Part shown: piece after piece, positions 1-14,859 of the stretch
Layout: every line of letters starts with the position of its first letter
How positions within the stretch are numbered: the stretch's first letter is position 1
DNA from: a virus
Lineage: Duplodnaviria; Heunggongvirae; Uroviricota; Caudoviricetes
Length of the DNA stretch: 16,516 bases
Virus record (IMG/VR): IMGVR_UViG_3300010261_000025
Location: 1 to 16,516 of that record
Direction: 5' to 3' (one strand)
Position numbers and translations under genes: made by a program
The notes under the pieces: model-generated
What the model saw: only the letters and a program-made list of their open reading frames with translations
Databases searched by the model: none
Told to the model about the DNA's origin: nothing

Positions 1-1387
1 AAACGCCAGCAGCAGCAACCCTGCGCATCGCCGCAATGAGATGATGGCCTGTGTTAAAGGTCTGGAGCTTATCGCGGAAATGCGCGGTGACTGCGCCGTT
101 TTCTACACTATCACCTGTCCGTCGCGTTTCCATTCCACGCTAAATAACGGCAGACCAAACCCGACCTGGACAAACGCGACGGTAAGACAAAGCAGCGATT
201 ATCTGGTCGGCATGTTTGCTGCATTTCGTAAGGCGATGCACAAAGCCGGGTTGCGCTGGTATGGCGTGCGGGTGGCTGAGCCGCATCATGATGGCACAGT
301 TCACTGGCACCTGTTGTGTTTCATGCGCAAAAAAGACCGCCGTGCCATCACTGCATTACTGCGTAAGTTTGCCATCCGTGAAGACCGCGAGGAGCTGGGC
401 AATAACACTGGGCCGCGCTTTAAGTCTGAGTTGATTAACCCGCGCAAAGGAACGCCGACAAGCTACATCGCGAAATATATCAGTAAGAACATTGACGGTC
501 GTGGTCTGGCTGGCGAGATCAGCAAGGAAACGGGTAAATCTCTGCGTGATAACGCTGAATACGTGAATGCTTGGGCGTCTCTGCATCGTGTTCAGCAATT
601 CCGCTTCTTTGGTATTCCGGGGCGTCAGGCTTACCGTGAACTTCGCTTGCTGGCTGGTCAGGCGGCAAGGCAACAGGGTGACAAAAAAGCAGGTGCGCCG
701 GTACTGGATAACCCGCGTCTTGATGCCATTCTGGCTGCTGCTGATGCTGGTTGTTTTGCCACCTACATCATGAAGCAGGGCGGCGTACTGGTTCCCCGTA
801 AATATCACCTCATCAGAACCGCTTATGAAATCAACGAAGAGCCGACCGCCTATGGCGATCACGGCATTCGTATTTATGGCATCTGGTCACCCATTGCAGA
901 GGGCAAGATCTGCACTCATGCAGTGAAGTGGAAAATGGTTCGTAAAGCCGTTGACGTTCAGGAGGCGGCAGCCGACCAGGGCGCTTGCGCCCCTTGGACT
1001 CGTGGCAATAACTGTCCCCTTGCTGAAAATTTGAACCAACAGGAGAAAGATAAATCAGCTGACGGGGACACCAGAACTGACATTACCCGCATGGATGACA
1101 AGGAGTTGCACGATTATCTGCACAGTATGAGCAAAAAAGAGCGTCGGGAACTGGCTGCAAGGTTACGCCAGGTGAAACCGAAACGGCGCAAAGACTACAA
1201 ACAGCGAATTACAGACCATCAGCGACAGCAGCTCGTCTATGAACTGAAGTCCAGAGGATTTGATGGCAGCGAGAAAGAGGTCGATTTACTCCTTCGCGGA
1301 GGCAGTATTCCGTCAGGGGCTGGCCTGCGTATCTTCTATCGGAATCAGCGTTTACAGGAAGATGATAAGTGGCGGAACCTGTATTAA
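1..1387 (+). CDS. A: Replication initiation protein GpA (rolling-circle initiator endonuclease), C-terminal part; 5' end lies outside the window (reading frame begins at position 2)
   Basis: Open frame runs from window edge to TAA at 1385-1387. Translation contains an HUH-like motif (VHWHLL) and a tyrosine-containing motif (YIAKYISK) typical of rolling-circle initiators. Position matches P2 gene A upstream of the variable region. Confidence 0.85.
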
Positions 1388-1479
1388 TTACGCGGATTAA
1401 CAATTCGTGCTCTTAATAATACCAGGCATATCAGGCTGATGAACGTAAAAAAACGTTTTACATCAGTAAGATTATTATA

Positions 1480-1499
1480 TACTGTAAATATAAACAGTG
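1480..1499 (+). promoter_or_regulatory. LexA (SOS) box overlapping a putative promoter for the downstream small ORF and dinI-like gene
   Basis: TACTGTAAATATAAACAGTG = CTGT-N8-ACAG with an AT-rich spacer, matching the LexA consensus TACTGT(AT)4ACAGTA. TTTACA (-35-like) at 1457-1462 and TATACT at 1478-1483 overlap it. Confidence 0.6.
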
Positions 1500-1540
1500 G
1501 TCATGTATACAGTATTGCTTGTGGTGTTATAGGAGGAAAG

Positions 1541-1729
1541 ATGCAGGACTATTTTTTGGAGTCTTTGAAGCTCCAGCGCATTGATTTTTTTCTTAAGCTT
1601 GTAGCGGCTAGTGAGTGTAGTGATGAAGAGAAGGGGCTGGCTCTGCAGTGGGTTTCTGAATTGACTGATGAACTCATGGCAAAAATCAGAACCCACGAAT
1701 ACAACCGCTCAATGGATGTCATCAGCTGA
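1541..1729 (+). CDS. Small hypothetical protein (62 aa) under the LexA box; possible Tum-like SOS-induced antirepressor by position (unverified)
   Basis: ATG at 1541 is preceded by AGGAGGAAAG, a strong RBS. The longer ORF-track start at 1439 would overlap the LexA box and promoter, so the internal start is preferred. Located like the 186 tum locus, right of gene A. Confidence 0.5.
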   Translation: MQDYFLESLKLQRIDFFLKLVAASECSDEEKGLALQWVSELTDELMAKIRTHEYNRSMDVIS

Positions 1730-1739
1730 GGTGACTTTT

Positions 1740-1973
1740 ATGCGCATTGAAATAATGATCGATAAAGAGCAGAAGATTAGCCAGTCTACCCTGGATGCCC
1801 TTGAATCCGAGCTTTACCGCAATCTGCGCCCCCTGTATCCCAAAACGGTAATTCGTATCCGCAAAGGTAGCTCTAACGGTGTGGAACTGACCGGACTGCA
1901 ACTGGACGAAGAAAGGAAGCAAGTGATGAAAATTATGCAGAAGGTGTGGGAAGACGACAGCTGGTTACATTAG
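1740..1973 (+). CDS. DinI-family protein
   Basis: Translation MRIEIMIDK...DALESEL...KQVMKIMQKVWEDDSW shares the DinI signature (MRIE start, DAL..EL, C-terminal I.Q..WE..D.W). ATG at 1740 is preceded by GAGGTG. It is 10 nt downstream of the preceding ORF, suggesting one SOS-regulated transcript. Confidence 0.8.
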   Translation: MRIEIMIDKEQKISQSTLDALESELYRNLRPLYPKTVIRIRKGSSNGVELTGLQLDEERKQVMKIMQKVWEDDSWLH

Positions 1974-1979
1974 GGTACG

Positions 1980-2014
1980 TTGCGGACGATAAAACTGGTT
2001 TTTACCGTTCGCAA
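1980..2014 (+). other. Long imperfect palindrome / RNA hairpin just downstream of the dinI-like stop (14-bp stem, one mismatch, one G-U, 5-nt loop); no U-tract
   Basis: TTGCGGACGATAAAAC-TGG-TTTTTACCGTTCGCAA; the arms are reverse complements apart from 1989/2005 and a G-T at 1985/2009. Confidence 0.4.
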
Positions 2015-2099
2015 GGTTGAGCAACGAGCCGTGCGAGGCGTTAGTTATGGATAAATTGGTTGCAGGGTGATATGTAAATAGGTTAATACGTAGCACTCT

Positions 2100-2135
2100 T
2101 CGAATAGTTTCGTATTTTTGTTGTCCTATAATCAT
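2100..2135 (+). promoter_or_regulatory. Candidate sigma70 promoter for the cargo operon (TATAAT at 2127-2132)
   Basis: A perfect TATAAT hexamer lies about 60 nt upstream of the ATG at 2194; the -35 region is weak. AT-rich context. Confidence 0.3.
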
Positions 2136-2193
2136 AAGATGACAGCTTCCATGCACCACAATCCGTGGCGTTTGAGGCATAAGGAGGAAAATA

Positions 2194-2393
2194 TGTCTGA
2201 ACTTCTGCGCAAAGTTCTCTCTGCACCAGGTAAGATTATGCAGGATGTCATCCGTCAGGATGTGCAACAGTCTGATAATAGTAAAATTATCACAGATGCT
2301 AATGGTGCGGCGACCTTAAACATGAACAATAAGCAGGTACGTGAATCAATGCGTGCCAGAATGGAAGAATTGGCTGCAAAACGACAAGGATGA
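2194..2393 (+). CDS. Hypothetical small hydrophilic protein (66 aa), first gene of an AT-rich cargo operon
   Basis: ATG at 2194 preceded by AAGGAGGAAAAT. Its stop TGA (2391-2393) lies 3 nt before the next ATG, indicating translational coupling. No recognisable motif. Confidence 0.5.
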
Positions 2394-2396
2394 GGA

Positions 2397-3179
2397 ATGG
2401 GACCCTTAGTTATCATGGTCGTCCTGGTTTGCGGGTTCTGGTACACCGAAAATCATTACCAGTCCCGCATCAGGCAAGCAAGAAGTAATGGTTGGAATTC
2501 CTATTTTTATGTAGCTATGCATGGTTGTAAGTTTGCTATTCAGGGGTTTACTCTGATGGCTGTTACATTCGTTACCTTGCTAGTTATAAGCTCAGTTATC
2601 AATGTTTTTGGTTATTTTTGGCCTAAGTTACATGTGGACTTTTATTCATGGCTCACAGACGTAAAGATAATGTCTTACCCATTGTTCTTTGTGTTGTCTA
2701 TGCTGCTTGCGGTGTTTATTGCTTATGACCAAGGTAACAATGCGCGAAGAGCAATAGAAAACGAAGAGATTCGTCAATCTGCATATCGCGAGATGGCAGC
2801 TCAAGATGGAATTGAGTCACTGTTAGTTCAGGCTATAGATGAAGGTAAGCTCATCTTTGTTACGCTAAAATCCAGAAAAGTTTACATTGGTTACGTAGCT
2901 GCTCCTCGGATGGAGCATCAGGAAACTCAGCATCTGGCTCTCATACCATACATCAGTGGTTATCGTGATAAAGATACGCTCAGATACCATGAGCAGCATC
3001 GTTACTATGAACTTTACCTTAGTAAAAATATTACAGCAGACTCAACTCCACTGAACTTAAATCATTTTAGGCATGTAATCCCAATGGATCAGGTTGAGAG
3101 TATTTCAATATTTGATACTGAAACTTATAAATCTTTCGAAGATTTTTCTACGCCTGACCAGACCAAAGTCACTGCATGA
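2397..3179 (+). CDS. Hypothetical membrane protein (260 aa): three predicted N-terminal TM helices plus a ~150-aa soluble C-terminal domain; candidate phage-encoded defence/abortive-infection effector
   Basis: Hydrophobic stretches PLVIMVVLVCGFWY, FTLMAVTFVTLLVISSVINVFGYFW and IMSYPLFFVLSMLLAVFIAY. Visibly AT-rich compared with flanking phage genes. Sits in the variable region between gene A and the cos/portal end. Confidence 0.6.
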   Translation: MGPLVIMVVLVCGFWYTENHYQSRIRQARSNGWNSYFYVAMHGCKFAIQGFTLMAVTFVTLLVISSVINVFGYFWPKLHVDFYSWLTDVKIMSYPLFFVLSMLLAVFIAYDQGNNARRAIENEEIRQSAYREMAAQDGIESLLVQAIDEGKLIFVTLKSRKVYIGYVAAPRMEHQETQHLALIPYISGYRDKDTLRYHEQHRYYELYLSKNITADSTPLNLNHFRHVIPMDQVESISIFDTETYKSFEDFSTPDQTKVTA

Positions 3180-3296
3180 CTATGCCGCATGAATATGCAT
3201 GATCGTTCGAGGATCGTTTTTGCTGAGGCCCGCCAGTTCTGGTGGGCTTTTGCTTATGTCATGCACCTGCATGAAAATCGCTACAAAAAGCGGGCA

Positions 3297-3315
3297 GGCG
3301 TGGCGGGGATACGAG
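3297..3315 (+). other. Candidate cos (cohesive end) site
   Basis: GGCGTGGCGGGGATACGAG in a GC-rich non-coding island. As I recall them, the 19-nt cohesive ends of P2 (GGCGAGGCGGGGAAAGCAC) and 186 (GGCGTGGCGGGGAAAGCAT) match in the first 13 nt. The location between the replication side and portal Q is as expected for cos. Confidence 0.35.
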
Positions 3316-3394
3316 CGCGCGCAAACATGTTTACTTGCAATTAATGTAGATATATTCTGAAATTGATAACTTACACATGAAAGGAGACGTGAGA

Positions 3395-3586
3395 GTGGCA
3401 AAATATACACCGGGCCAGAAAGTAAAACATGCAACAGGACATGGTCCAATCATGGTAATTGATCACTACCAATCGGCTACAATGGCAGTTTGTACGTGGT
3501 TTATTGGTGCTAAGAACCAGCGCGGAGTTTTTCATGAAGATACTCTAGTTTTATTTGTTCCAAAAGCTGAGAGTGATGATGAATGA
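3395..3586 (+). CDS. DUF2158 (YodC-like) small protein, ~63 aa
   Basis: GTG at 3395 follows AAGGAGA by about 8 nt; the ATG at 3377 is an alternative start. Motifs GQKVKHATGHGPIMVI and CTWFIGAKNQRGVFHEDTL resemble the DUF2158 pattern (G.KV.LKSGGP.MTV ... C.WF.G ... F). Confidence 0.5.
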   Translation: MAKYTPGQKVKHATGHGPIMVIDHYQSATMAVCTWFIGAKNQRGVFHEDTLVLFVPKAESDDE

Positions 3587-3845
3587 TTCTCTGATAAAAA
3601 TAGTTGACTGGATGGTTAATACCACTCGTTCTAATGGTGTGTTGTATCAGTCCGAGGTTGTTGAATTTCTAATCAATGACTTTGGGGACGAGTTCATCAA
3701 AACTAATGAGAATGGTAATTACGCTATAAGCAGTACTGTGCTAGCAAATTTTAGAAAGGCTAGCAAAGACGATATAGTTTGGGATCGTGAACAGTTAGCT
3801 TGGCGTTTACGCAATGAAAGCGATTTACCCGGACGGATGCAGTAG
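3576..3845 (+). CDS. Hypothetical protein (~89 aa), translationally coupled to the DUF2158 gene
   Basis: Tandem ATG ATG at 3576-3581 overlaps the upstream stop (GATGATGAATGA). The ORF ends at 3845 and is followed by a hairpin terminator. No recognisable domain. Confidence 0.45.
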   Translation: MMNDSLIKIVDWMVNTTRSNGVLYQSEVVEFLINDFGDEFIKTNENGNYAISSTVLANFRKASKDDIVWDREQLAWRLRNESDLPGRMQ

Positions 3846-3862
3846 AGATAATACAGATAATA

Positions 3863-3903
3863 GTGAACAAGCTGATAATTTCAACTTGTTCACTTCTTTT
3901 TTA
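3863..3903 (+). terminator. Rho-independent terminator (possibly bidirectional) between the small-gene pair and portal gene Q
   Basis: GTGAACAAGCTG-ATAATTT-CAACTTGTTCAC hairpin (about 11-bp stem, one mismatch) followed by TTCTTTTTTAT. Confidence 0.6.
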
Positions 3904-4941
3904 TGACTGATTATTTTCTAAGCCATAATATTCAAATTTGACTACCTCTTCATCTAACCATTCATTAATTTCGGCAATGCGTTTTTGTAAAGGCATCAGT
4001 TCATTCCGAACAAATACCCGGCTGGCTTTCTCCACATCCCCAAACCCCCCTACATTATTAGGCATAATCCCCATCATCTGCGGCGGCACTCGGTGTGCTG
4101 CCATCATGTCGTCCCGGCTCACGTTCTTGATATTCAGAAACTCATCCTTCGCCGCGACTTCTGACAACGGGATGATCTGAAGCCCGTCCTTTTTGCCGTT
4201 AGGCGAGTACATAAACAGATTGCGGAAGTTACCTGGTCCTTTGGCGCTTTTCATCGCATTGCGGAGGTTGTTCACATCCTCCTGGTTTTGCGCGGCATCG
4301 GTCATGTACATGATGAAGCCTGCATGACTGCCGTTAATGTAATACTTTCGACGGAACAGCGTGGCGGACTCGTTGAGCAGGGCAGACGGAATGGCAGAAA
4401 GATAACCGGGCAGGCCGTAGATCTCCTGATTAATATCCGGTTCCATTAGATGAAAAATGCTGCCTTTCGTGAACTGATACGGCTGGGTTGTCATACCGTA
4501 TTGCACAAACCAGTAGGTATCCAGGTCTAACCCGCGTCGGGTGTATTTTGCCAGCGCAGGCTCAAGGGCGATAACTTCACCGAATCGGTTCGTGCGTTTC
4601 TCCAGGTAGGCGTTACCAAATACCAGATAGTCCTGCACAAAACGCGAAAAAGCCTGCTGGCTGAGCAGCGGATGAGGGATATAGGTACTGGTCAGAATGT
4701 TGCACTTTACTGCAATCGGGGAACTGTGATGCACGGCGGCGCGGAAGGTGCGCGCCAGTCCGTCAAAGCTGACGGGCGGCTCATACCAACGGTCCATCTG
4801 TACGCATTCCACATAGTCCAGCAGTTCACGGCGGTCCAGAACAGGAACGGGATCGCCGAAGCTGAATGCTTCGGCTGTAGTTTGACTTTTAAGCTGGATC
4901 TGTTTCGTCGCCGCAGCTCGGTTCTTCTTACTCTTTCCCAT
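3901..4941 (-). CDS. Q: Portal vertex protein GpQ
   Basis: 346-aa ORF beginning MGKSKKNRAAATKQ, with the size and gene order of P2 Q. The ATG at 4941 overlaps the stop of the upstream terminase gene; the ORF track extends one codon further to a TTG. Confidence 0.9.
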   Translation of the reverse strand: MGKSKKNRAAATKQIQLKSQTTAEAFSFGDPVPVLDRRELLDYVECVQMDRWYEPPVSFDGLARTFRAAVHHSSPIAVKCNILTSTYIPHPLLSQQAFSRFVQDYLVFGNAYLEKRTNRFGEVIALEPALAKYTRRGLDLDTYWFVQYGMTTQPYQFTKGSIFHLMEPDINQEIYGLPGYLSAIPSALLNESATLFRRKYYINGSHAGFIMYMTDAAQNQEDVNNLRNAMKSAKGPGNFRNLFMYSPNGKKDGLQIIPLSEVAAKDEFLNIKNVSRDDMMAAHRVPPQMMGIMPNNVGGFGDVEKASRVFVRNELMPLQKRIAEINEWLDEEVVKFEYYGLENNQS

Positions 4942-6707
4942 CAAAAAATCTCCACAATATTGCTGGTATTGGCGGATTCGCCCTGCAGCGGTTCGTTAAA
5001 CAGTGCGTGCATCGTTGCCCATGCCAGATCGGCGTGGCTGGCTTCTTCGCTGCGGCTGGCTTCATAGGTCGGGCGGTTGCCACTGGCGGTGGTGGCGCGA
5101 CGGATTGCCATAAATGACTGCGCAATGTCGGTATGTCCGGCGTCAAACTCCAGACGGCGGTGGCTGATAATGTCGTAGGCCTTGAGTACCAGGGCGTTTT
5201 TAACGTTGGGGTTGTAGACAAACTCCCGGACGGCAGGAAAGAACGCTTTCACGTTCTCGTAAACCCCGTGACCAACGCCGGTTGAGTCGATGCCGATGTA
5301 GGTCACGTTGTACTGCTCGGTCAGTTTTTTGATTGCGTCAGCCTGGGCGCGGAAGTCCATCCCGCGCCACTGGTGACGCTCAAGAATGCGAAACTTACCG
5401 CCCGGCACGGCTGGCGGTGCCACCACCACGCATCCGGCGCTGTCGCCGTTCTGCGTACCTTTTGCCGGGTCATAACCGATCCACACTTCGCGCCAGCCAA
5501 ACGGGCGCAGGGCCAGAGCATGAAAGTCGGTCCAGACTTCCCAACTGTCCACCATGCACGTCTGCAGCTCGCTGAGCGGAAACACGGACGCGAGATCGTC
5601 CACAAACTCGCACATCAGTAGGTTCTGGTATTCGTCCGGGCTGTACTCCATGCGCAACTGGTCGAGGTCGAACAGGTTACAGCCGCCGCGCACCGCATCT
5701 TCCACAGTGACTATCTGGCGGTACTGCCCGTCTGCGCACAGCAGGCCGGGGGCCAGATTGCTGTGGGACAGGTCGATGTCCACCTTATCGGCTTTGTTGC
5801 GCCCACGATTGAACAGCGCACCGGACCAGAACGGATAAGCACTGTGAGTCAGGCTGGATGGCGTGGAAAAATAGGTTTGTCGCCATTTTTTGTGAATAGC
5901 CATACCGGAAGCCACTTTGCGCAGCTCCTGGAATTTCGGTATCCAGAAATATTCATCCAGATACAGGTTGCCGTGATAACTCTGGGCCGTGCGGGCATTG
6001 GTGCCGAGGAAGTAAAGCGTGGCCCCGTTAGGAAGCACCATCGGATCGCCTTTCAGCTCCACCTCCACTTCTTTGGCGAAGTCGATGATGTACTGCTTAA
6101 AGACGTGGGCCTGTGCCTTACTGGCGGAAAGGAAAATCTGGTTACGCCCGGTAAGCAGGGCGTCAATCAGGGCTTCACGGGCAAAGTAAAAGGTCGCGCC
6201 GATCTGGCGTGACTTCAGCAGGTTGCGGATGCGGTTGGTTTTTCCGGCTTCCCACCAGTGGCGCTGGTAGTTGAACATGGAGGAATGGAAGATTTCTTCC
6301 AGCTTCTCAATCTGTTCATCGGTGAAGACATTTTTTTCCGGCTGACGGCGCGGGCCTTTGTTGCGGTTGGCGACGTTAGGGTTTAAGTCAGCTTCGTTGC
6401 CGCCATTGTTAAACTTGCCGATCCGCGCGTGGCGCTCAGACTGGCGCGCCAGCAGGTCAATCTCTTTGAAATCTTTCCCTTCTTTGTGCTCCTTCATAAT
6501 GAGCTGGCAGTAGCGTGCGGCGGTGGTGAGCTGCATCTGATCCAGCGGCCCATAGTCACCCCACTTGTCGCGTTTTTTCCAGCTGTGAACGGTTGCAACT
6601 TTCTCGCCCAGCATTTCAGCAATGCGGGCGACGCGGTATCCCTGAAAGTACAGCAGCATGGCCTGCCGACGGGGATCGAGATCTGCGGGTGTCAGTGTGG
6701 TGTTCAT
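4941..6707 (-). CDS. P: Terminase large (ATPase) subunit GpP
   Basis: 588-aa ORF with the size and order of P2 P, co-oriented with Q and divergent from O. Confidence 0.9.
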   Translation of the reverse strand: MNTTLTPADLDPRRQAMLLYFQGYRVARIAEMLGEKVATVHSWKKRDKWGDYGPLDQMQLTTAARYCQLIMKEHKEGKDFKEIDLLARQSERHARIGKFNNGGNEADLNPNVANRNKGPRRQPEKNVFTDEQIEKLEEIFHSSMFNYQRHWWEAGKTNRIRNLLKSRQIGATFYFAREALIDALLTGRNQIFLSASKAQAHVFKQYIIDFAKEVEVELKGDPMVLPNGATLYFLGTNARTAQSYHGNLYLDEYFWIPKFQELRKVASGMAIHKKWRQTYFSTPSSLTHSAYPFWSGALFNRGRNKADKVDIDLSHSNLAPGLLCADGQYRQIVTVEDAVRGGCNLFDLDQLRMEYSPDEYQNLLMCEFVDDLASVFPLSELQTCMVDSWEVWTDFHALALRPFGWREVWIGYDPAKGTQNGDSAGCVVVAPPAVPGGKFRILERHQWRGMDFRAQADAIKKLTEQYNVTYIGIDSTGVGHGVYENVKAFFPAVREFVYNPNVKNALVLKAYDIISHRRLEFDAGHTDIAQSFMAIRRATTASGNRPTYEASRSEEASHADLAWATMHALFNEPLQGESANTSNIVEIF

Positions 6708-6753
6708 GGCACAAACCTACAGCCTTGAATGAAGGCTTTCCCCGCCTGCGGTT

Positions 6754-6771
6754 TGTGTGGTTGTCGGTACA
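6754..6771 (+). promoter_or_regulatory. Late-promoter activator (Ogr/Delta-type) binding site upstream of O: TGT-N12-ACA
   Basis: TGTGTGGTTGTCGGTACA at 6754-6771 in the P/O divergent intergenic region, about 80-95 nt upstream of the O start codon. P2 late promoters carry a TGT-N12-ACA dyad centred near -55. Confidence 0.45.
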
Positions 6772-6849
6772 AATACCGCGCATTGTTTCACTGCCCCCAT
6801 CACCGCAACCATAAGGCTCCAGTAAGTTTTTTCTAACGGAGCACGGCTC

Positions 6850-7683
6850 ATGACAGTGAAAGCAAAGCGTTTTCGCATCGGGGTGGAAGGTGCCACCACC
6901 GATGGACGCGAAATCCAGCGTGAATGGCTGGAACAGATGGCAGCCAGCTACAACCCGGCGGTGTATACCGCGCTGATTAACCTTGAGCACATCAAGTCTT
7001 ATCTGCCGGACAGCACCTTTAACCGCTACGGCAAGGTGACGGCGCTGTTTGCTGAAGAAATCACGGAAGGTCCGCTGGCAGGCAAGATGGCGCTGTATGC
7101 CGACGTTGAGCCAACGGAGTCCCTGGTGGAACTGGTGAAAAAAGGCCAGAAATTATTCACCTCTATGGAAGTCAGCCCGAAGTTCGCTGATACGGGCAAA
7201 GCCTACCTGGTCGGCCTGGCTGCCACTGATGACCCTGCCAGTCTGGGTACGGAAATGCTGACATTCAGCGCCAGTGCAGCCCATAACCCGCTGGCAAACC
7301 GCAAGCAGAATCCTGCCAATCTCTTTACCGCTGCAGAGGAAACGGTGATCGAACTGGAAGAAATCCAGGACGACAAACCGTCCCTGTTTGCCCGCGTCAC
7401 GGCGCTGTTTACCAAAAAAGAGCAGTCCGATGACGCCAGGTTCTCTGATGTGCATAAGGCCGTGGAGCTGGTCGCCACTGAGCAGCAGAACCTGAGCGCA
7501 CACACCGAAAAATCCCTGTCTGAGCAGGAAGAACGTCTGTCTGAGCTGGAGACTGCCCTGCAGGCACAGCAGACCGCCTTTAACGAACTGGTGGACAAGC
7601 TGAGTCATGAAGACAGCCGCCAGGACTACCGCCAGCGTGCAACAGGCGGTAACGCCCCCGCTGACACTCTGACCAATTGCTGA
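6850..7683 (+). CDS. O: Capsid scaffolding protein GpO
   Basis: 277-aa ORF; RBS ACGGAG before the ATG; acidic coiled-coil-like C-terminal region; position between P and N as in P2. Confidence 0.9.
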   Translation: MTVKAKRFRIGVEGATTDGREIQREWLEQMAASYNPAVYTALINLEHIKSYLPDSTFNRYGKVTALFAEEITEGPLAGKMALYADVEPTESLVELVKKGQKLFTSMEVSPKFADTGKAYLVGLAATDDPASLGTEMLTFSASAAHNPLANRKQNPANLFTAAEETVIELEEIQDDKPSLFARVTALFTKKEQSDDARFSDVHKAVELVATEQQNLSAHTEKSLSEQEERLSELETALQAQQTAFNELVDKLSHEDSRQDYRQRATGGNAPADTLTNC

Positions 7684-7699
7684 TGGAGCACAAAACCCG

Positions 7700-8758
7700 A
7701 TGAAGAAGAATACCCGCTTTGCTTTTAACGCTTACCTGCAGCAGCTGGCGCGTCTGAATGGTGTGGCAGTTGAAGAACTGTCCAGCAAATTCACTGTGGA
7801 GCCGTCTGTGCAGCAGACGCTGGAAGACCAGATCCAGCAGTCCGCCGCTTTCCTGACGCTGATTAACGTCACGCCAGTGACTGAGCAGTCCGGTCAGCTG
7901 CTGGGGCTGGGTGTTGGCAGCACCATTGCCGGAACCACTGACACCACCGCGAAAGAGCGTGAACCTGTCGATCCGACGCTGATGGTCGATGTGGAATATA
8001 AATGCGAGCAGACCAACTTTGACACGGTGCTGACCTACGCGAAGCTGGACCTGTGGGCGAAGTTTCAGGATTTCCAGGTGCGTATCCGTGACGCCATCGT
8101 GAAACGTCAGGCACTGGACCGCATCATGATCGGCTTTAACGGCGTGAAGCGTGCGAAAACCTCCAACCGTAGTGAAAACCCGCTGCTGCAGGATGTAAAC
8201 AAAGGCTGGCTGCAGAAAATCCGTGAGGATGCACCGGATCACGTCATGGGCAGCACCACCACGGGCGGTGAAACCACACCGGGCGCGGTGAAAGTCGGTA
8301 AAGGTGGCGAATATGCCAACCTGGACGCCGTGGTGATGGATGCCGTTAATGAGCTTATCGACGTGGTCTACCAGGACGATGACGATCTGGTGGTGATTTG
8401 CGGCCGTGAACTGCTGTCTGACAAGTATTTCCCGCTGGTCAACAAAGAGCAGGAAAACAGTGAAAAACTCGCTGCCGATATGATCATCAGTCAGAAACGC
8501 ATGGGTGGCCTGCAGGCGGTGCGTGCGCCGTTCTTCCCGCCGAATGCACTGCTGATCACCCGTCTGGATAACCTGTCCATCTACTGGCAGGAAGACACCC
8601 GCCGCCGTTCAGTTATCGACAACCCGAAACGTGACCGGATTGAAAACTTTGAATCCGTTAATGAAGCCTATGTGGTTGAGGACTACCGCTGCGCCGCACT
8701 GGTGGAAAACATCCAGATTGGTGATTTCATCGCCGCCGCAGCCGAAACTGGAGCGTAA
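7700..8758 (+). CDS. N: Major capsid protein GpN
   Basis: 352-aa ORF directly downstream of O, with P2 N-like size and order. Confidence 0.9.
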   Translation: MKKNTRFAFNAYLQQLARLNGVAVEELSSKFTVEPSVQQTLEDQIQQSAAFLTLINVTPVTEQSGQLLGLGVGSTIAGTTDTTAKEREPVDPTLMVDVEYKCEQTNFDTVLTYAKLDLWAKFQDFQVRIRDAIVKRQALDRIMIGFNGVKRAKTSNRSENPLLQDVNKGWLQKIREDAPDHVMGSTTTGGETTPGAVKVGKGGEYANLDAVVMDAVNELIDVVYQDDDDLVVICGRELLSDKYFPLVNKEQENSEKLAADMIISQKRMGGLQAVRAPFFPPNALLITRLDNLSIYWQEDTRRRSVIDNPKRDRIENFESVNEAYVVEDYRCAALVENIQIGDFIAAAAETGA

Positions 8759-8761
8759 TCC

Positions 8762-9412
8762 ATGAGCCTGAGTCCCGCACGGCAGCATCGCCTGCGCGTT
8801 CAGGCTGAACAGGCCGCCCGCGAGGGCGGCAGTGTTCGCCACGCATCGGGCTATGACCTGATGCTGCTGCAACTGGCGGAAGACCGCCGCCGTCTCAAGG
8901 GCGTTCAGTCCACGGTCAAAAAAGCGGAAATCAAGGTGGAGCTGCTGCCGAAATATGCCGCCTGGGCGGAGGGAGTCCTGGATGCCGGAGGCGCTCAACA
9001 GGATGACGTGCTGATGTACGTGATGCTGTGGCGCATTGATGCCGGAGATTATGCCGGGGCGCTGGAGATCGGGCGTCATGCCCTGCGTCATGGCTGGGTG
9101 ATGCCGCTGGGTAACCGCAATGTGCAGACCGTGCTGGCAGAGGAAATGGCAGACGCGGCACAGAGCGCAATGCTTGCCACTACCGGGTTTGATGCCGATC
9201 TGTTGCTGCAGACGCTGGAGCTGACAGACGGTCTGGATATGCCGGACCAGTCACGGGCGCGTCTGCATAAAGCGATTGGCGCTGTCCTGAGTGAAAGCAA
9301 TCCGGCTTCCGCCCTTAATCATCTCAACCAGGCGTTACAGCTCGATCCCCGCTGTGGCGTGAAAAAAGACAAACAGCAGCTGGAGCGCAGACTGCGCAAT
9401 GACAGCCGCTGA
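8762..9412 (+). CDS. M: Terminase endonuclease (small) subunit GpM
   Basis: 216-aa ORF starting 4 nt after the N stop; RBS GGAG; P2 gene order N-M-L. Confidence 0.85.
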   Translation: MSLSPARQHRLRVQAEQAAREGGSVRHASGYDLMLLQLAEDRRRLKGVQSTVKKAEIKVELLPKYAAWAEGVLDAGGAQQDDVLMYVMLWRIDAGDYAGALEIGRHALRHGWVMPLGNRNVQTVLAEEMADAAQSAMLATTGFDADLLLQTLELTDGLDMPDQSRARLHKAIGAVLSESNPASALNHLNQALQLDPRCGVKKDKQQLERRLRNDSR

Positions 9413-9507
9413 CAGAACGTGCCCCCGCGCACGGGCGGCACGGGGTGGCGAAAGGCACTGCCACATCAAAACCCCGTCCACCGCCCTCTATTTCAGGAGA
9501 AAGCAGC

Positions 9508-9972
9508 ATGAAGTTTGTTGCGCCAGAACAGGCACCGGAACAGGCGGAAATCATCAGGAATACGCCGTTCTGGCCTGATGTGGACTTGTCGGAGTTTCGC
9601 AGTGTCATGCGCACTGACGGCACGGTGACGCAGCCGCGTTTAAAGCAGGTTGCGCTGTCGGCAATTTCGGAGGTCAACGCAGAGCTGTATGAGTTTCGCA
9701 GACGCCAGCAGATGCTGGGGTATGCCTCGCTGGAAGAGGTTCCGGCAGAACAGCTGGACGGGAAAAGTGAGCGCATTCAGCACTATTTCAACGCGGTTTA
9801 CTGCTGGGCACGCGCCATGCTCAACGAACGATACCAGGACTATGACGCCACGGTATCCGGTGTGAAGCGGGGCGAGGAACTGGCAGAAGCCAGCGGTGAT
9901 TTGTGGCGTGACGCCCGCTGGGCCATCAGTCGGGTGCAGGATGCGCCGCATTGCACAGTGGAGCTTATCTGA
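9508..9972 (+). CDS. L: Head completion/stabilisation protein GpL
   Basis: ATG at 9508 is preceded by CAGGAGAAAGCAGC, a good RBS; the TPFWPDVD motif lies near the N-terminus. The ORF track's upstream start at 9445 is a GTG with no RBS. Confidence 0.8.
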   Translation: MKFVAPEQAPEQAEIIRNTPFWPDVDLSEFRSVMRTDGTVTQPRLKQVALSAISEVNAELYEFRRRQQMLGYASLEEVPAEQLDGKSERIQHYFNAVYCWARAMLNERYQDYDATVSGVKRGEELAEASGDLWRDARWAISRVQDAPHCTVELI

Positions 9973-10175
9973 TGAAAGTGCGTGCGCATCAGTATGACAC
10001 GGTGGACGCGCTTTGCTGGCGTCATTACGGGCGCACGCAGGGTGTCACGGAGCAGGTACTGAAGGCAAATCCGGGGCTTGCCGAATTTGGCCCCTTTTTA
10101 CCTCACGGGCTGCAGGTGGAGCTGCCGGACATTCCGACCACCACTACCGTGCAGACCGTCCAGCTATGGGACTGA
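9972..10175 (+). CDS. X: Tail protein GpX (LysM-like)
   Basis: 67-aa ORF whose ATG overlaps the L stop (TGATG), with the size and position of P2 X. Confidence 0.8.
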   Translation: MKVRAHQYDTVDALCWRHYGRTQGVTEQVLKANPGLAEFGPFLPHGLQVELPDIPTTTTVQTVQLWD

Positions 10176-10178
10176 ATT

Positions 10179-10394
10179 ATGACGCTTGAGCGAATCAGCG
10201 CCTTTATCACGTATTGCATCGCCGTTGTGCTGGCCTGGCTGGGCGATTTGTCCATCAAGGATGCCTCAACGCTGGGCGGCCTGATGATCGGTGTGCTGAT
10301 GCTGGCTATCAACTGGTACTACAAACACAAAGCCTACCAGCTTCTGCGCGACGGGCAGATCTCGCGGGAGGACTATGAATCCATCAATCGTTAA
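10179..10394 (+). CDS. Holin, probably a pinholin (71 aa, two TM segments)
   Basis: Two hydrophobic segments (AFITYCIAVVLAWLG and LGGLMIGVLMLAINWYY) and a charged C-terminus. Lies immediately upstream of, and overlapping, the endolysin gene. Confidence 0.7.
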   Translation: MTLERISAFITYCIAVVLAWLGDLSIKDASTLGGLMIGVLMLAINWYYKHKAYQLLRDGQISREDYESINR

Positions 10395-10890
10395 ACGCTG
10401 CCTTGTCGGGGCTGTGCTGGCTATTGCTGCCACGCTGCCGGGTTTTCAGCAACTTCACACCTCCGTGGAGGGGCTGAAACTGATTGCCGATTACGAAGGC
10501 TGTCGTCTGCAGCCGTATCAGTGCAGCGCGGGTGTCTGGACCGACGGCATTGGTAATACATCTGGCGTCATTCCAGGCAAAACTATTACGGAACGACAGG
10601 CAGCGGAAGGGCTGATCTCCAACGTGCTACGTGTGGAGCGGGCGCTGGAAAGATGTGTGAAGCAACAGCCGCCGCAGAAGGTGTATGACTCGGTGGTGTC
10701 GTTTGCCTTCAACGTGGGAACGGGCAATGCCTGCAGTTCCACACTGGTGAAATTACTCAATCAGCGGCGCTGGGCAGATGCGTGCCGACAGTTGCCGCGC
10801 TGGGTGTATGTAAAAGGTGTTTTTAATCAGGGGCTGGATAACCGCCGTGCGCGGGAGATGGCCTGGTGCCTTAAAGGAGCTGGACTATGA
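10375..10890 (+). CDS. Endolysin, T4-lysozyme-like (GH24) with an N-terminal SAR (signal-anchor-release) domain
   Basis: Gly/Ala-rich weakly hydrophobic N-terminus (CLVGAVLAIAATLPG), then the catalytic E-8aa-D-5aa-T triad pattern (EGLKLIADYEGCRLQPYQCSAGVWTDGIGNT). RBS GGAGG before the ATG. Confidence 0.85.
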   Translation: MNPSIVKRCLVGAVLAIAATLPGFQQLHTSVEGLKLIADYEGCRLQPYQCSAGVWTDGIGNTSGVIPGKTITERQAAEGLISNVLRVERALERCVKQQPPQKVYDSVVSFAFNVGTGNACSSTLVKLLNQRRWADACRQLPRWVYVKGVFNQGLDNRRAREMAWCLKGAGL

Positions 10891-11315
10891 CGCGTGCGCT
10901 GGCAGTAGTGGTGGCGCTGATACTCGTTGCGCTGGGCTGGCAGTCGTGGCGGCTTAACAGCGCCAGCCACACCATCGAAACGCAGCGCGCGGCGCTAGAA
11001 AGTAAAGCGCAGGAACTAACGAAGAAAAATAGCCAGTTGATCAGTCTGTCCATTCTGGCTGAAACCAACAACCGGGAGCAGGCGCGGCTCTATGCCGAAT
11101 CAGAACAGACCAGCGCGCTGCTGAGACAACGACAACACCGGATCGAGGAACTGAAACGTGAGAACGCGGATTTACGCCGCTGGGCTGATATTCCTTTGCC
11201 TACTGACATTATCCGGCTGCGGGAACGTCCGACACTCACCGGAGGTGCAGCTTACCGTCAGTGGTTGTCCGCGAGTGACGCCGTGTCGGCTGGATCAGGC
11301 AACGCCGCGCACTAA
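10887..11315 (+). CDS. lysB: LysB-like inner-membrane spanin (i-spanin)
   Basis: N-terminal TM segment (LAVVVALILVALGW) followed by a coiled-coil-like, charged periplasmic region. Position after the endolysin as in P2 lysB. Confidence 0.7.
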   Translation: MTRALAVVVALILVALGWQSWRLNSASHTIETQRAALESKAQELTKKNSQLISLSILAETNNREQARLYAESEQTSALLRQRQHRIEELKRENADLRRWADIPLPTDIIRLRERPTLTGGAAYRQWLSASDAVSAGSGNAAH

Positions 11316-11448
11316 CGGTGATCTGAACGCGTTGCTGGATGAAACGGAGGCCGCCTGGGCGGTCTGTGCAGACAAAGTGGATATGATTATTGCTTGTCAG
11401 GAGCGAAACAGTGAACAAACCACAATCCCTGCGCCACGCCCTCAATAA
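11158..11448 (+). CDS. lysC: LysC-like outer-membrane lipoprotein spanin (o-spanin), overlapping the 3' part of lysB in another frame
   Basis: Signal peptide with lipobox (LLTLSGC). Starts inside the i-spanin gene and extends beyond it, the overlapped spanin architecture known for P2 LysB/LysC. Confidence 0.6.
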   Translation: MRTRIYAAGLIFLCLLTLSGCGNVRHSPEVQLTVSGCPRVTPCRLDQATPRTNGDLNALLDETEAAWAVCADKVDMIIACQERNSEQTTIPAPRPQ

Positions 11449-11842
11449 AGCGGTGCCTTATGTCCGCAATAACCCGGACAAACTGCATCTGTTTGTGGAT
11501 AACGGTTCGCTGGTTGCCACGGGGGCCAGCTCCATGTCATGGGAGTACCGCTACACCCTGAACGTGGTGATTGAGGATTTCAGCGGCGACCAGAATCTGC
11601 TGATGGCCCCGGTTTTGCTGTGGTTGCGGGATAACCAGCCCGATGCCATCAATAACCCGGCGTTACGGGAAAAGCTATTCACCTTTGAGGTGGATATTCT
11701 GCGCAACGATGTCTGTGATATCAGCCTTAACCTGCAACTGACGGAGCGTGTGCTGGTCAGCACTGACGGCAGTGTGTCGAACGTTGAAGCGGTAGCGGAA
11801 CCTGATGAACCTGAAGAAATGTGGACGGTGAAACGTGGCTGA
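11411..11842 (+). CDS. R: Tail completion protein GpR
   Basis: GTG at 11411 preceded by AGGAG. Translation (HLFVDNGSLVATGASSMSWEYRYTLNVVIEDFSGD ... WLRDNQPD) resembles P2 R. Confidence 0.8.
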   Translation: MNKPQSLRHALNKAVPYVRNNPDKLHLFVDNGSLVATGASSMSWEYRYTLNVVIEDFSGDQNLLMAPVLLWLRDNQPDAINNPALREKLFTFEVDILRNDVCDISLNLQLTERVLVSTDGSVSNVEAVAEPDEPEEMWTVKRG

Positions 11843-12281
11843 ACTGCAGAAGGTGGACGACTGGCTGAGTGCATTATTGGCGAATCTGGAGCCAGCCGCA
11901 AGAAGCCGCATGATGCGCCAGCTGGCGCAGGAACTGCGCCGGACACAGCAGCAGAACATCAGGATGCAGCGCAATCCAGATGGCAGCAGTTATGAGCCGC
12001 GCAGGGTAACAGCACGCAGCAAAAAGGGGCGCATCAAACGTCAGATGTTTGCGAAGCTGCGCACCACAAAATACCTGAAAACTGCCGCCAGCGCCGACTC
12101 TGCCAGCGTGCAGTTTGAAGGCAAGGTGCAGCGCATTGCCCGCGTTCATCACTACGGCCTGCGTGATCGCGTCAGTCGCAAAGGACCTGAGGTCCGTTAT
12201 GCAGAGCGTCGTTTGTTAGGGGGGAATGATGAAGTAGAAACTCGAACTAGGAATATCCTAGTTCGATGGCTTATAAGTTAG
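11835..12281 (+). CDS. S: Tail completion protein GpS; the 3' end runs into AT-rich inserted DNA
   Basis: GTG start overlaps the R stop. P2 S-like size and order. The last ~18 codons are encoded by AT-rich sequence containing a perfect 10-bp inverted repeat. Confidence 0.8.
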   Translation: MAELQKVDDWLSALLANLEPAARSRMMRQLAQELRRTQQQNIRMQRNPDGSSYEPRRVTARSKKGRIKRQMFAKLRTTKYLKTAASADSASVQFEGKVQRIARVHHYGLRDRVSRKGPEVRYAERRLLGGNDEVETRTRNILVRWLIS

Positions 12282-12937
12282 CTCTTATTTTTGGATGAGC
12301 GTAAAAGACTCATTAATTCTATGATGATTTTTTCTTGAAGTAGATTGGGGGTTTTTTCGAAACTTACATTGTGTTCACGTAATGTTTGAATGATTTTGCC
12401 GAACTCATCAGTATCACCTTGCGATAGTAAGAATGCAATTCTCTGGTTGTCATAGTCGTTGCTCATTTGCATGTTGTATTTAATGAACACAATAAATAAC
12501 CGAAGTATATATCCAGTGAATAATATTCCAGATAAGATTAGTAAATAAGGTGCCGCGGTTTCAATGGCTTTTTCAAAGGTGCTTTTAGTATTTAGGTATG
12601 TTGAATTAATACCTGATTCATTTTTTTTGATTATCGGGTTTGAATTTTTTGAAGCGTTGAGGTTTTCTGATGCTTGTGCAAGTTTATCAGTTAACTGTTG
12701 CATGGCGGTGAACTTTTCGAAAGCAGATTCTATTTGCTGAGAGCTCAATCTAAGTGAGGCAAGTGCATTGTCACGCTTATTACTTTCTGCTTTATAAAAA
12801 ATATAAGTTGCAGGAATGCAGAGTACAGCAGTTAATAAAATATATAAAAATAAGAGCGTAGTAATTTTAGAGCGGCTAGCTCGTTTTTCCATTGTTTTCA
12901 ATATTTCGTTATATTTTTGTTCGTCAAGAACCATCAT
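12278..12937 (-). CDS. Hypothetical two-TM membrane protein (~220 aa) encoded by an AT-rich moron between S and V; candidate superinfection-exclusion/defence protein
   Basis: Tandem ATG ATG at 12937-12932 (minus strand) preceded by AAGGA. The ORF-track start at 13039 would overlap the V start, so it is unlikely. TM segments ITTLLFLYILLTAVLCIPATYIFY and APYLLILSGILFTGYILRLFIVFI flank a coiled-coil-like segment. Opposite orientation to the late genes, at the position of P2 orf30. Confidence 0.6.
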   Translation of the reverse strand: MMVLDEQKYNEILKTMEKRASRSKITTLLFLYILLTAVLCIPATYIFYKAESNKRDNALASLRLSSQQIESAFEKFTAMQQLTDKLAQASENLNASKNSNPIIKKNESGINSTYLNTKSTFEKAIETAAPYLLILSGILFTGYILRLFIVFIKYNMQMSNDYDNQRIAFLLSQGDTDEFGKIIQTLREHNVSFEKTPNLLQEKIIIELMSLLRSSKNKS

Positions 12938-12964
12938 CTTAAATTTTATCCTTGGAAGATACAT

Positions 12965-12982
12965 TGTGCCATTTATAGCACA
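12965..12982 (+). promoter_or_regulatory. Late-promoter activator site (TGT-N12-ACA) for a P_V-like promoter upstream of V
   Basis: TGTGCCATTTATAGCACA sits inside a perfect 9-bp inverted repeat (TACATTGTG ... CACAATGTA), about 50-65 nt upstream of the V ATG. P2 has a late promoter upstream of V. Confidence 0.5.
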
Positions 12983-13029
12983 ATGTACCTGATCTACCGT
13001 AGAAGTCGATAATTCATCATCCTTAGTAG

Positions 13030-13608
13030 ATGAACGCACAACTAACAGAAATCATGCGCCTTATCACCAACCTGATCCGCACAGGGGTAGTCACCGAAGT
13101 GGACCGGGAAAACTGGCTTTGCCGGGTGAAAACGGGCGAGCTTGAAACCAACTGGATCAGCTGGCTGACGCTGCGTGCCGGGAATGCCCGCACATGGTGG
13201 CGACCATCGGAAGGTGAGCAGGTGGTGGTGCTGAGTCTGGGAGGCAATCTGGAAACTGCCTTTGCGTTGCCCGCAGTCTATTCGAATCAGTTCGCGCCAC
13301 CTTCGACGTCGGCGGACGCCTGCGTGACAGAACATCCTGACGGTGGCTGGTTTGAATACGAACCCGCCACCGGGCGCTGGTATGTCAGGGGCATCAAATC
13401 CATGGTCATTGAGGCTGCCGACAACATCACCCTGAAAACCAGTGAGTTTGTGCTGGAGGCTGACCGCACGCGTATTAACAGCGAAGTAGTGATCAATGGT
13501 GGCGTTACCCAGGGCGGCGGTGCAATGAGTTCTAACGGAATTGTGGTTGATGCACATCAGCATACTGGCGTCCTGAAAGGCGGCGATACAACCGGAGGCC
13601 CGGTATGA
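13030..13608 (+). CDS. V: Baseplate spike / assembly protein GpV
   Basis: 192-aa ORF with the conserved motif WWRPSEGEQVVVLSLGGNLETAFALPAVYS (compare P2 V TWWAPSVGEQVLILAVGGELDTAFVLPGIYS) and an HTG motif at the C-terminus. Confidence 0.85.
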   Translation: MNAQLTEIMRLITNLIRTGVVTEVDRENWLCRVKTGELETNWISWLTLRAGNARTWWRPSEGEQVVVLSLGGNLETAFALPAVYSNQFAPPSTSADACVTEHPDGGWFEYEPATGRWYVRGIKSMVIEAADNITLKTSEFVLEADRTRINSEVVINGGVTQGGGAMSSNGIVVDAHQHTGVLKGGDTTGGPV

Positions 13609-13964
13609 CGCTTTATAGCGGGATGAACAATACCAGCGGCAAAGTCATTACTGATATTGACCATCTGCGCCAGTCGGTGCGGGACATTCTGCTGACGCCG
13701 CAGGGTAGCCGCATTGCCCGTCGGGAATATGGTTCCCTGCTGTCGGCACTGATAGACCAGCCACAAAATCCGGCGTTACGCCTGCAGGTCATGTCGGCAG
13801 TGTATGTGGCGCTGAGTCGCTGGGAGCCACGGCTGATGCTGGATTCCATCACCATCAACAGCAACTTTGACGGTTCTATGGTGGTGGAGCTGACCGGGCG
13901 GCGGAATAACGGTGTGCCTGTGTCCCTTTCCGTATCAACAGGAGCAGAGAATGGCAGTGATTGA
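13605..13964 (+). CDS. W: Baseplate wedge protein GpW (gp25-like)
   Basis: 119-aa ORF overlapping the V stop (ATGA), with the size and position of P2 W. Confidence 0.85.
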   Translation: MTLYSGMNNTSGKVITDIDHLRQSVRDILLTPQGSRIARREYGSLLSALIDQPQNPALRLQVMSAVYVALSRWEPRLMLDSITINSNFDGSMVVELTGRRNNGVPVSLSVSTGAENGSD

Positions 13965-14859
13965 CCTTTCGCAGTTGCCTGCACCGCAGATTGTGGATGT
14001 GCCGGACTTTGAGACGCTGCTTGCCGAACGCAAGGCTGAATTTGTGGCGCTTCATCCTAAAGATGAACAGGAAGCCGTGATCCGTACGCTGGAATTGGAA
14101 TCTGAACCCGTCACCAAATTGTTGCAGGAGAACGCTTACCGTGAGTTGCTTCTGCGCCAGCGCATTAACGAAGCCGCGCAGGCGGTGATGGTGGCTTACG
14201 CGATGGGCGGCGATCTTGACCAGCTCGCTGCCAACTACAACGTGAAACGCCTGACGGTGACGCCTGCTGATAATGATGCTGTGCCGCCCGTTGCGGCTGT
14301 GATGGAAAGTGATGAAGCGTTACGCCTGCGTGTGCCTGCAGCCTTTGAAGGGCTTTCAGTTGCGGGGCCAACTGCAGCTTATGAATTTCATGCCCGAAGC
14401 GCCGACGGTCGGGTGGCGGATGCCAGTGCAACCAGCCCGGCACCTGCAGAGGTGGTGCTGACTGTCCTTAGCCGCGAAGGCGATGGAACTGCAGAAAAAG
14501 ACCTGCTGGACGTGGTGGAAAAAGCTCTGAACAGTGAGAACGTCCGCCCGGTGGCTGACCGTCTTACGGTTCGCAGCGCAGAAATCATCCCGTATCGCGT
14601 GGAAGCCACCATTTTTCTCTATCCGGGACCGGAAGCAGAGCCGGTAATGGCAGCGGCAAAAGCCAGTCTGCAGAAGTACATTGCCAGCCAGACGAGGCTT
14701 GGTCGGGATATTCGCCGTAGCGCCATCTTTGCTGCTCTGCATGTTGAGGGTGTTCAACGTGTGGAACTGGCTTCCCCGCAGGCGGACGTGGTCCTGAACA
14801 AAACGCAGGCGGCATCATGTACGCAGTGGAGCGTGACCAACGGGGGAACGGATGAATAG
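13951..14859 (+). CDS. J: Baseplate assembly protein GpJ
   Basis: ATG at 13951 preceded by GGAGCAGAGA; about 302 aa, matching P2 J in size and order. Confidence 0.85.
   Translation: MAVIDLSQLPAPQIVDVPDFETLLAERKAEFVALHPKDEQEAVIRTLELESEPVTKLLQENAYRELLLRQRINEAAQAVMVAYAMGGDLDQLAANYNVKRLTVTPADNDAVPPVAAVMESDEALRLRVPAAFEGLSVAGPTAAYEFHARSADGRVADASATSPAPAEVVLTVLSREGDGTAEKDLLDVVEKALNSENVRPVADRLTVRSAEIIPYRVEATIFLYPGPEAEPVMAAAKASLQKYIASQTRLGRDIRRSAIFAALHVEGVQRVELASPQADVVLNKTQAASCTQWSVTNGGTDE

Follow-up and report, generated by a model that had tools for sequence, protein, structure and literature searches.

A gene pair encoding a membrane protein and a small partner beside cos in P2-like prophages: an autonomous accessory cassette and a candidate phage-defense module

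A membrane anchor joined to a small barrel of the ligand-binding type is an architecture found among known membrane effectors of abortive systems, as in CBASS Cap15 or in systems that follow the logic of RexB. The cytoplasmic barrel of Cap15-type effectors binds a nucleotide signal, and this leads to membrane disruption. RexB of phage lambda, a small membrane protein of four helices, lacks a cytoplasmic domain, and RexA has about 280 amino acids (aa). Phage P2 carries Old, a soluble ATPase-nuclease, and Tin, a soluble protein, in the slot between gene A and cos. The subject of this study is a pair of genes that occupies the same slot in a stretch of 16,516 nucleotides (nt) from a virus of the Caudoviricetes (positions 1 to 16,516 of IMG/VR record IMGVR_UViG_3300010261_000025; hereafter the window). 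The window is a P2-like prophage, and the pair, which encodes a small soluble protein of 66 aa followed by a large inner-membrane protein of 260 aa, lies between the C-terminus of gpA and the portal gene.

Like old and tin of P2, the pair is accessory cargo of low GC content that related phages exchange; it differs from them in having no sequence relation to either (no PADLOC match, models of Old included) and in consisting of a membrane protein and a much smaller partner with no enzymatic domain. RexA and RexB are likewise a soluble and a membrane protein borne by a prophage, both free of enzymatic domains, and their logic, in which a cytoplasmic partner controls a membrane effector, is our working model for the pair. 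The two systems are not homologous, however, and in the pair it is the membrane protein that holds a large cytoplasmic domain while the partner is tiny. Cap15-type effectors share with the large protein the combination of transmembrane (TM) helices and a small beta-barrel, but no signal-producing enzyme is linked to the pair and PADLOC has no match for it. The pair is an autonomous two-gene cassette of temperate phages, of the moron or hotspot type. Its two products may form an inner-membrane complex that shields the lysogen from infection by other phages, whether through abortive infection or through superinfection exclusion; we favor this interpretation over the alternatives but regard it as tentative and somewhat short of probable.

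The placement of the pair was compared in the 80 best IMG/VR loci, four GTDB genomes and CFT073. About 50 of the 80 loci were P2-like and the pair was found between gpA and the portal gene in all of them, as well as in the four GTDB genomes and in CFT073. The initial annotation had assigned the genes to a cargo hotspot of P2-like prophages, and recurrence at exactly this place was confirmed in about 45 diverse P2-like phages and prophages, whose gpA proteins are 31-100% identical to that of the window. Loci with an identical pair differed in their downstream cargo. The pair has the fixed position between core genes and the presence or absence among related phages that characterize a moron. The slot between gene A and cos, where P2 has old and tin, is a hotspot in which unknown cargo often turns out to be defensive (PMC9122126).

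A 12-nt core, presumably that of the P2 and 186 cos sites, was found 121-202 nt past the end of the large gene in 44 P2-like loci (121-150 nt in 43 of them and 202 nt in one Klebsiella phage), so that on the A side of cos the pair is in every case the final cargo. The full 19-nt cos sequences of P2 and 186 had no match within three mismatches, and only the 12-nt core matched. The record of phage SEN5 terminates 170 nt after its homologue. Beyond the core, the interval from cos to the portal gene is hypervariable, with 46 protein clusters in 46 loci, and its cargo includes AriA/Old/GajA-like ATPases, Drt3b, NsnB and bSEFIR; known defense systems lie on the opposite side of cos from the pair. 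In the window, this interval contains a further small unit of cargo, made up of two genes that overlap by 11 nt (Table 1). Cargo on the A side and the Q side appears from these comparisons to assort independently around cos, suggesting that cos or its flanks are a recombination boundary. The 128 nt after the large gene (3173-3300), which comprise the terminator and the cos flank, are about 90% identical in E. coli P2-like prophages that lack the pair and in Yersinia phage vB_YpM_MLG42, which also lacks it. In Klebsiella phage ST15-OXA48phi14.1 (L162), gp15 (6853-7062), a 69-aa "hypothetical protein", overlaps the cos-like 12-mer at 6961 and may be an annotation artifact that spans the packaging site. 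A TIR-linked effector was considered and rejected; the TIR gene near the homologue in ST15-OXA48phi14.1 is a stand-alone bSEFIR (E 7e-103) located across cos, and most loci have no TIR gene.

The pair is flanked by signals of its own (Table 1). The core of the -10 hexamer, (C/T)CTA(T/C)A, is retained in alignments of diverged P2-type loci about 60 nt 5' of the ATG. A consensus promoter scan made no call at 2127-2132 because a -35 match is absent, and we take the hexamer to be a putative promoter element. The leader hairpin has an 8-bp stem with compensatory changes at three of the eight pairs and may act as an mRNA stabilizer or attenuator. The terminator region (3175-3275) has a predicted RNA folding energy of -37.6 kcal/mol (z = -2.96), and SEN5 has a similar hairpin and T-run after its homologue. 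The cassette is self-contained in that a conserved -10, a leader hairpin, a strong ribosome-binding site and a strong intrinsic terminator are all present. Transcription signals of its own and a deviating base composition, two further marks of a moron, were both found, with the promoter being predicted from sequence. A conserved block (about GTAAATAGGTTAA) at 2060-2100 on the plus strand precedes the -10 of P2-type cassettes by 40-65 nt and may bind a regulator. In the window it reads TGT-N12-ACG, which resembles the Ogr box without matching it. An Ogr-dependent late promoter was considered and rejected; the TGT-N12-ACG of the window is centered about 55 nt ahead of the likely start site, and the TGT/ACA elements are not conserved in homologous leaders. 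True Ogr boxes (TGT-N12-ACA) are present in the window at 6754-6771 and 12965-12982. No LexA box was visible by eye in 1974-2192.

The pair is more AT-rich than the phage backbone, as had been noted at the outset, with a GC content of 0.41 (0.43 in the small gene and 0.40 in the large gene) vs. 0.53-0.57 in the backbone (0.525 in gene A, 0.544 in the portal and terminase genes and 0.571 in the head and tail genes). Low GC (0.415) spans all of 1400-3900 and so extends more widely than the pair alone. The two open reading frames (ORFs) that the initial annotation placed at 2194-2393 and 2397-3179 are both real, with a correction to the small gene, which begins at 2193; the frame at 2194 has stop codons. 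The tight coupling that it described was also found, the TGA of the small gene (2391-2393) and the ATG of the large gene (2397) being 3 nt apart.

Both ORFs are genuine genes under strong purifying selection. The ratio of nonsynonymous to synonymous substitution rates (dN/dS) lay between 0.015 and 0.11 in the small gene and near 0.04 in the large gene when compared with diverged homologues, in which synonymous sites are near saturation. The ratio within the large gene was 0 for codons 1-50, 0.09 for codons 51-130 and 0.02 for codons 131-250; residues 1-50 are almost invariant (dN = 0 vs. the homologue of locus L090) and residues 51-130 the most variable. An ORF of about 65 aa that belongs to the small-protein family stops only a few bases from the large-gene start in 152 of 162 loci, and this pairing extends to relatives at only 33-40% identity. 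The small family has the motif SP..., followed by (I/L)xxDxxGxxx(V/L)N and then a helix. The large-protein family comprised 158 clusters at 90% identity by word search, and 2666 representatives at 50% identity with E<=1e-3, of which 1518 had E<=1e-10. Family members that were inspected had a uniform architecture and were all annotated as hypothetical, and ten representative clusters contained no informative domain fusion and no fusion to a defense domain.

The AlphaFold2 model of the large protein (pLDDT 83, from an alignment of 36 sequences) shows, in order, a short hydrophobic N-terminal helix, a juxtamembrane segment, two TM helices linked by a short loop and, after a helical linker, a C-terminal beta-barrel. 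The three TM helices of the initial annotation stand in part: residues 44-76 and 88-113 are strong hydrophobic segments above the Kyte-Doolittle threshold and are firm, whereas the N-terminal one (residues 3-16) falls below that threshold and is helical only in the model. The loop at residues 17-45 has four K/R and one D/E and that at residues 75-93 is neutral; from this bias in charge, both the 17-45 loop and the C-terminal domain are predicted to be cytoplasmic. Conservation is focused on residues 1-50 and 150-240, and membrane helices 2 and 3 and the loop that connects them are variable. The conserved motifs are LVCGxxY, GW..YF.VA..G (juxtamembrane), LKSRKVYxG, PxxSGYRD and FR..IP...ES.S.F.

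In the predicted structure, the C-terminal domain has the Sm/LSm/Hfq-like fold, that is, an N-terminal helix followed by a strongly bent, five-stranded antiparallel barrel. Sequence membership in these families (Sm1/Sm2 motifs; Pfam LSM, Hfq and WYL) was sought in 36 diverse members and gave no Pfam match; a profile search of the large protein against sequences in the PDB gave zero matches, and Foldseek against BFVD gave only weak ones (E >= 0.009, query-relative TM-score <= 0.37). The domain differs from the small beta-barrels of Sm, LSm, Hfq and WYL proteins in being fused to a membrane anchor and in having motifs of its own, LKSRKVYxG and PxxSGYRD, and a ring and nucleic-acid binding are hypothetical here. 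Mechanosensitive channels of the MscS type have three TM helices and an Sm-like beta domain and are heptameric. The likeness of the large protein to MscS is one of gross architecture only (N-terminal membrane helices and then a cytoplasmic Sm-like barrel), and membership in that family was rejected, as neither homology to the pore helix TM3 and beta domain nor a match to Pfam MS_channel was found. A membrane-tethered Sm-like domain is unusual and the rule of position always next to cos is striking. In the model of the small protein, two N-terminal helices of low confidence precede a confidently predicted beta-hairpin and a C-terminal helix; no structural neighbors of it were found.

If the pair does act in defense, the following mechanism is conceivable. 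The large protein would insert in the membrane with its C-terminus in the cytoplasm, and its Sm-like barrel would drive oligomerization into a ring under the membrane, as is typical of Sm/Hfq domains. The barrel has an invariant face of basic and aromatic residues, which together with the invariant juxtamembrane segment could then bind a conserved ligand, either nucleic acid or nucleotide. The small protein, made in fixed proportion through translational coupling, would bind the cytoplasmic part and hold it inactive or tune it, until a phage cue shifts the assembly and its membrane helices either disturb the membrane or keep DNA from entering. Oligomerization, ligand binding, the regulatory role of the partner and an anti-phage phenotype are all steps that we infer. 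A broader and rather unlikely idea is that the pair represents an unrecognized class of membrane-anchored Sm/LSm-like rings with a dedicated 65-aa partner, in which sensing of nucleic acid or nucleotide on the cytoplasmic side of the inner membrane would gate the membrane, and which temperate phages would keep next to cos for immunity or for control over DNA entry and Erwiniaceae would have domesticated.

The pair was also found outside P2-like phages. In lambdoid prophages, it lies between a Q-like late-regulator gene and the holin gene, after RusA/NinG, after the lysis cassette or beside tail genes; the Pfam antitermQ match of the Q-like gene is faint in one such locus (L166) and absent in another (L167). 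A Mu-like Aeromonas prophage has the pair between Mor and an endolysin gene, and it is present in Pseudoalteromonas phage C5a and in Pseudomonas phages. A distant pair occurs in an accessory region of Salmonella IncC conjugative plasmids, where its neighbors are an AAA ATPase gene and a mer transposon. The moron sites in lambdoid and Mu-like prophages and in IncC plasmids fit accessory or defense cargo. The plasmid copy in NZ_CP016864.1 (L170; IncC, Salmonella) lies at 5791-6789, encodes distant homologues of 68 and 262 aa (22% identity), and is adjacent to the gene for a 547-aa AAA ATPase and to a mercury-resistance transposon; pairs of this type occur on many plasmids of Salmonella, most of which are conjugative and, in the cases checked, IncC.

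Neither protein of the window, nor diverse relatives of either, had a match in Pfam, NCBIfam or PADLOC, in agreement with the original statement that they resemble neither Old, Tin nor any recognized family. The large protein belongs to PHROGs 3630 (E 7e-90) and 23864 (2e-78) and the small protein to PHROG 22451 (1e-43). These memberships name families and explain nothing because none of the three has a functional annotation. Table S5A of Rousset et al. 2022 (PMC9122126) gives the pair as "hypothetical + hypothetical"; the accessions are absent from the other text supplements of that study and the pair is not among the defense systems that its main text validates. No paper was found that ties a membrane-anchored Sm-like protein to phage defense. 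The pair is catalogued yet uncharacterized, since it is known only as hypothetical in Table S5A and no linking paper was found. Its pairing with a small partner, its linkage to cos, its moron sites in other elements and its synteny in Pantoea are new here.

A role in defense, which the initial annotation had put forward, is plausible and goes no further than that; the part that is supported is that the pair is separable, low-GC cargo in a hotspot shared with known defense systems and has no match in the defense and family libraries searched. Work on P4 adds that six of eight unknown loci were protective (PMC13586616). Several observations weigh against defense. The same study obtained a machine-learning antiviral signal for only 15-32% of unknown P2 proteins. 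No family in PADLOC-DB 2.0.0 (5027 models, including Old and the candidate PDC families) matched either window protein at E<=1, the homologues of the pair carried by ST15-OXA48phi14.1, SEN5 and C5a likewise had no PADLOC match, and both accessions are missing from the text of the DefensePredictor supplements. Carriers of the pair usually have a recognized defense system as well, so the pair need not be "the" defense cargo. The pair is present in only 29 of 5426 complete E. coli genomes. dN/dS is low throughout both genes. Five Erwinia species have an intact large gene with no partner ORF upstream. At least 16 Pantoea species have the pair, at 33-39% identity, in one syntenic chromosomal position, and these copies are vertically inherited and slowly evolving with no arms-race signature, which is unusual for defense genes. 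Our confidence in the defense interpretation is kept below even by the absence of a defense domain, by slow purifying evolution and by stable chromosomal orthologues among housekeeping genes. Calling the pair a defense system is not yet justified by the evidence.

The chromosomal copies are among the grounds for considering a physiological membrane module, with a function in the envelope or in homeostasis (e.g., a regulated small channel, a scaffold or a tethered ring that binds RNA or nucleotides), whose phage and plasmid copies would be cargo of lysogenic conversion that tunes the physiology of the host. The gene order in Pantoea is rsmJ, uspA, uspB, pitA, yhiN, aldo-keto reductase, pair, LacI, SDR, MFS and queH, and mean identity there is 87% for the large and 85% for the small protein, within the range of the housekeeping neighbors (PitA 95%, YhiN 92%, SDR 76%). 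Other fixed contexts are found in Erwinia (MFS transporter, gene, crcB) and in a further Pantoea group (otsBA region), and closer relatives, at 62-74% identity, also lie between metabolic genes without phage genes or a cos motif. Strong and uniform purifying selection with invariant cytoplasmic surfaces, a very large and uniform family (the 2666 representatives) free of defense-domain fusions, and the lack of matches in defense libraries point the same way. Such a module is harder to reconcile with the consistent occurrence of the pair in moron and hotspot slots in phage-derived sets, with its patchy distribution within species (0.5% of E. coli genomes), with its carriage by at least three unrelated types of temperate phage and by conjugative plasmids, as is typical of conflict-related cargo, and with the absence of a conserved adjacent metabolic or transport partner gene. 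We consider a physiological module a serious possibility, though on the unlikely side. The solo large gene of Erwinia and related species (L022, L032, L046, L052 and L060; about 7001-7780) lies after an MFS transporter gene and before crcB.

The pair might instead serve the phage life cycle in lytic growth or DNA entry, through lysis timing of an antiholin-like kind, late protection against secondary infection or a role linked to whichever end of the genome enters the capsid last or the host first. Its near-constant distance to the cos-like core in the 44 P2-like loci, its location near the end of the SEN5 record, and the order of Q-like gene, pair and holin in lambdoid prophages and of Mor, pair and endolysin in the Mu-like prophage are consistent with this. 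Most P2-like prophages are without the pair, however (Table S5A of PMC9122126 and the count in E. coli genomes), i.e., it is not core, and P2-type lysis genes are present at another place in the window. No clear homology to a protein of lysis or morphogenesis was found, and neither protein matched a holin, antiholin or spanin family in Pfam or PHROGs. Obligatory linkage to an endolysin was not seen either: some lambdoid and Mu-like prophages have the pair next to lysis genes, P2-like phages and chromosomes have it at a distance from them, and chromosomal copies persist without any phage genes. An Ogr-type box (TGT-N12-ACA) is not conserved upstream, and in the lambdoid locus L167 a pR'/tR'-like promoter and terminator lie downstream of the pair, which for that reason need not belong to the late operon. 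A toxin-antitoxin or addiction pair, in which the membrane protein is the toxin and the upstream small protein the antitoxin and which stabilizes the prophage or plasmid, would account for the layout of the pair, in which translation of the larger membrane protein is coupled to that of a small gene upstream, and for a two-gene islet in many unrelated contexts and plasmids, at times in two copies per genome. The intact solo membrane gene conserved in the Erwinia subclade argues against a simple toxin with an obligatory antitoxin, as the toxin gene of such a pair would not be expected to persist without its antitoxin; nor do the proteins resemble known toxin or antitoxin families, the small protein in its predicted structure has no DNA-binding fold for autoregulation, and vertical conservation in Pantoea is long and strongly constrained. 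We judge a life-cycle role unlikely and an addiction pair very unlikely: the pair is an accessory, it persists where phage genes are absent, and one clade has the large gene without the small one.

An anti-phage function, if true, would mean a defense system that acts at the membrane through two proteins, without an enzyme and with an Sm-like barrel at its center, and would account for a unit of cargo that many P2-like phages keep directly beside cos. We know of no described defense system that uses an Sm-like fold in such a way. An assigned function would annotate thousands of genes, since neither protein has a Pfam or NCBIfam model and the family numbers about 2,700 clusters at 50% identity. 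The Pantoea and Erwinia orthologues offer a natural test of whether these were genes of host physiology first or are domesticated phage cargo, and the independent assortment of A-side and Q-side cargo bears on how P2 hotspots are shuffled.

Table 1. Features of the gene pair and its surroundings in the window, with their positions and supporting evidence.
Feature	Position	Strand	Evidence or remark
Gene A, C-terminal part (gpA, replication)	41-1387		Pfam Phage_GPA, E 3e-73
62-aa ORF	1541-1729	+	PHROG 698
DinI homologue	1740-1973	+	
-10 hexamer TATAAT, putative cassette promoter	2127-2132	+	Read from sequence; AT-rich upstream, weak -35
Hairpin in 5' untranslated region, then UUUG	2153-2171	+	RNAalifold, 11 diverged P2-type leaders
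Shine-Dalgarno AAGGAGG of small gene	2181-2187	+	Sequence; AGGAG almost invariant across aligned leaders
Small gene, 66-aa soluble protein	2193-2393	+	
Large gene, 260-aa inner-membrane protein, cytoplasmic C-terminal domain	2397-3179	+	
Membrane region of large protein, residues 1-113	2397-2735	+	Hydropathy, charge bias
Sm/LSm/Hfq-like beta-barrel domain (predicted), residues 150-240	2844-3116	+	Helical linker, residues 114-149, before barrel
Intrinsic terminator	3225-3258	+	GC-rich 11-bp stem, 4-nt loop, then UUUUGCUU
cos-like core GGCGTGGCGGGG	3297-3308	+	Single match in window vs. 0.01 expected; closes A-side cargo slot
63-aa DUF2158-like protein	within 3395-3845	+	E 7e-4, below Pfam cutoff
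89-aa DUF6953 protein	within 3395-3845	+	E 5e-24; weak PADLOC match to JukA, E 0.03
Portal gene	3901-4944	minus	
Large terminase gene	4941-6707	minus	Head, lysis and tail genes come after

Elsewhere in the window, a second AT-richer island (12278-13039, minus strand; GC 0.34-0.36) is flanked by tail genes and takes the place that the Z/fun hotspot has in P2. Its product of 253 aa belongs to PHROG 2611, for which no function is annotated, and has a weak match to DUF3112 and zero PADLOC matches. The ORF of PHROG 698 and the DinI gene precede the cassette in the window, and both accompany the pair in many, not all, P2-like loci.

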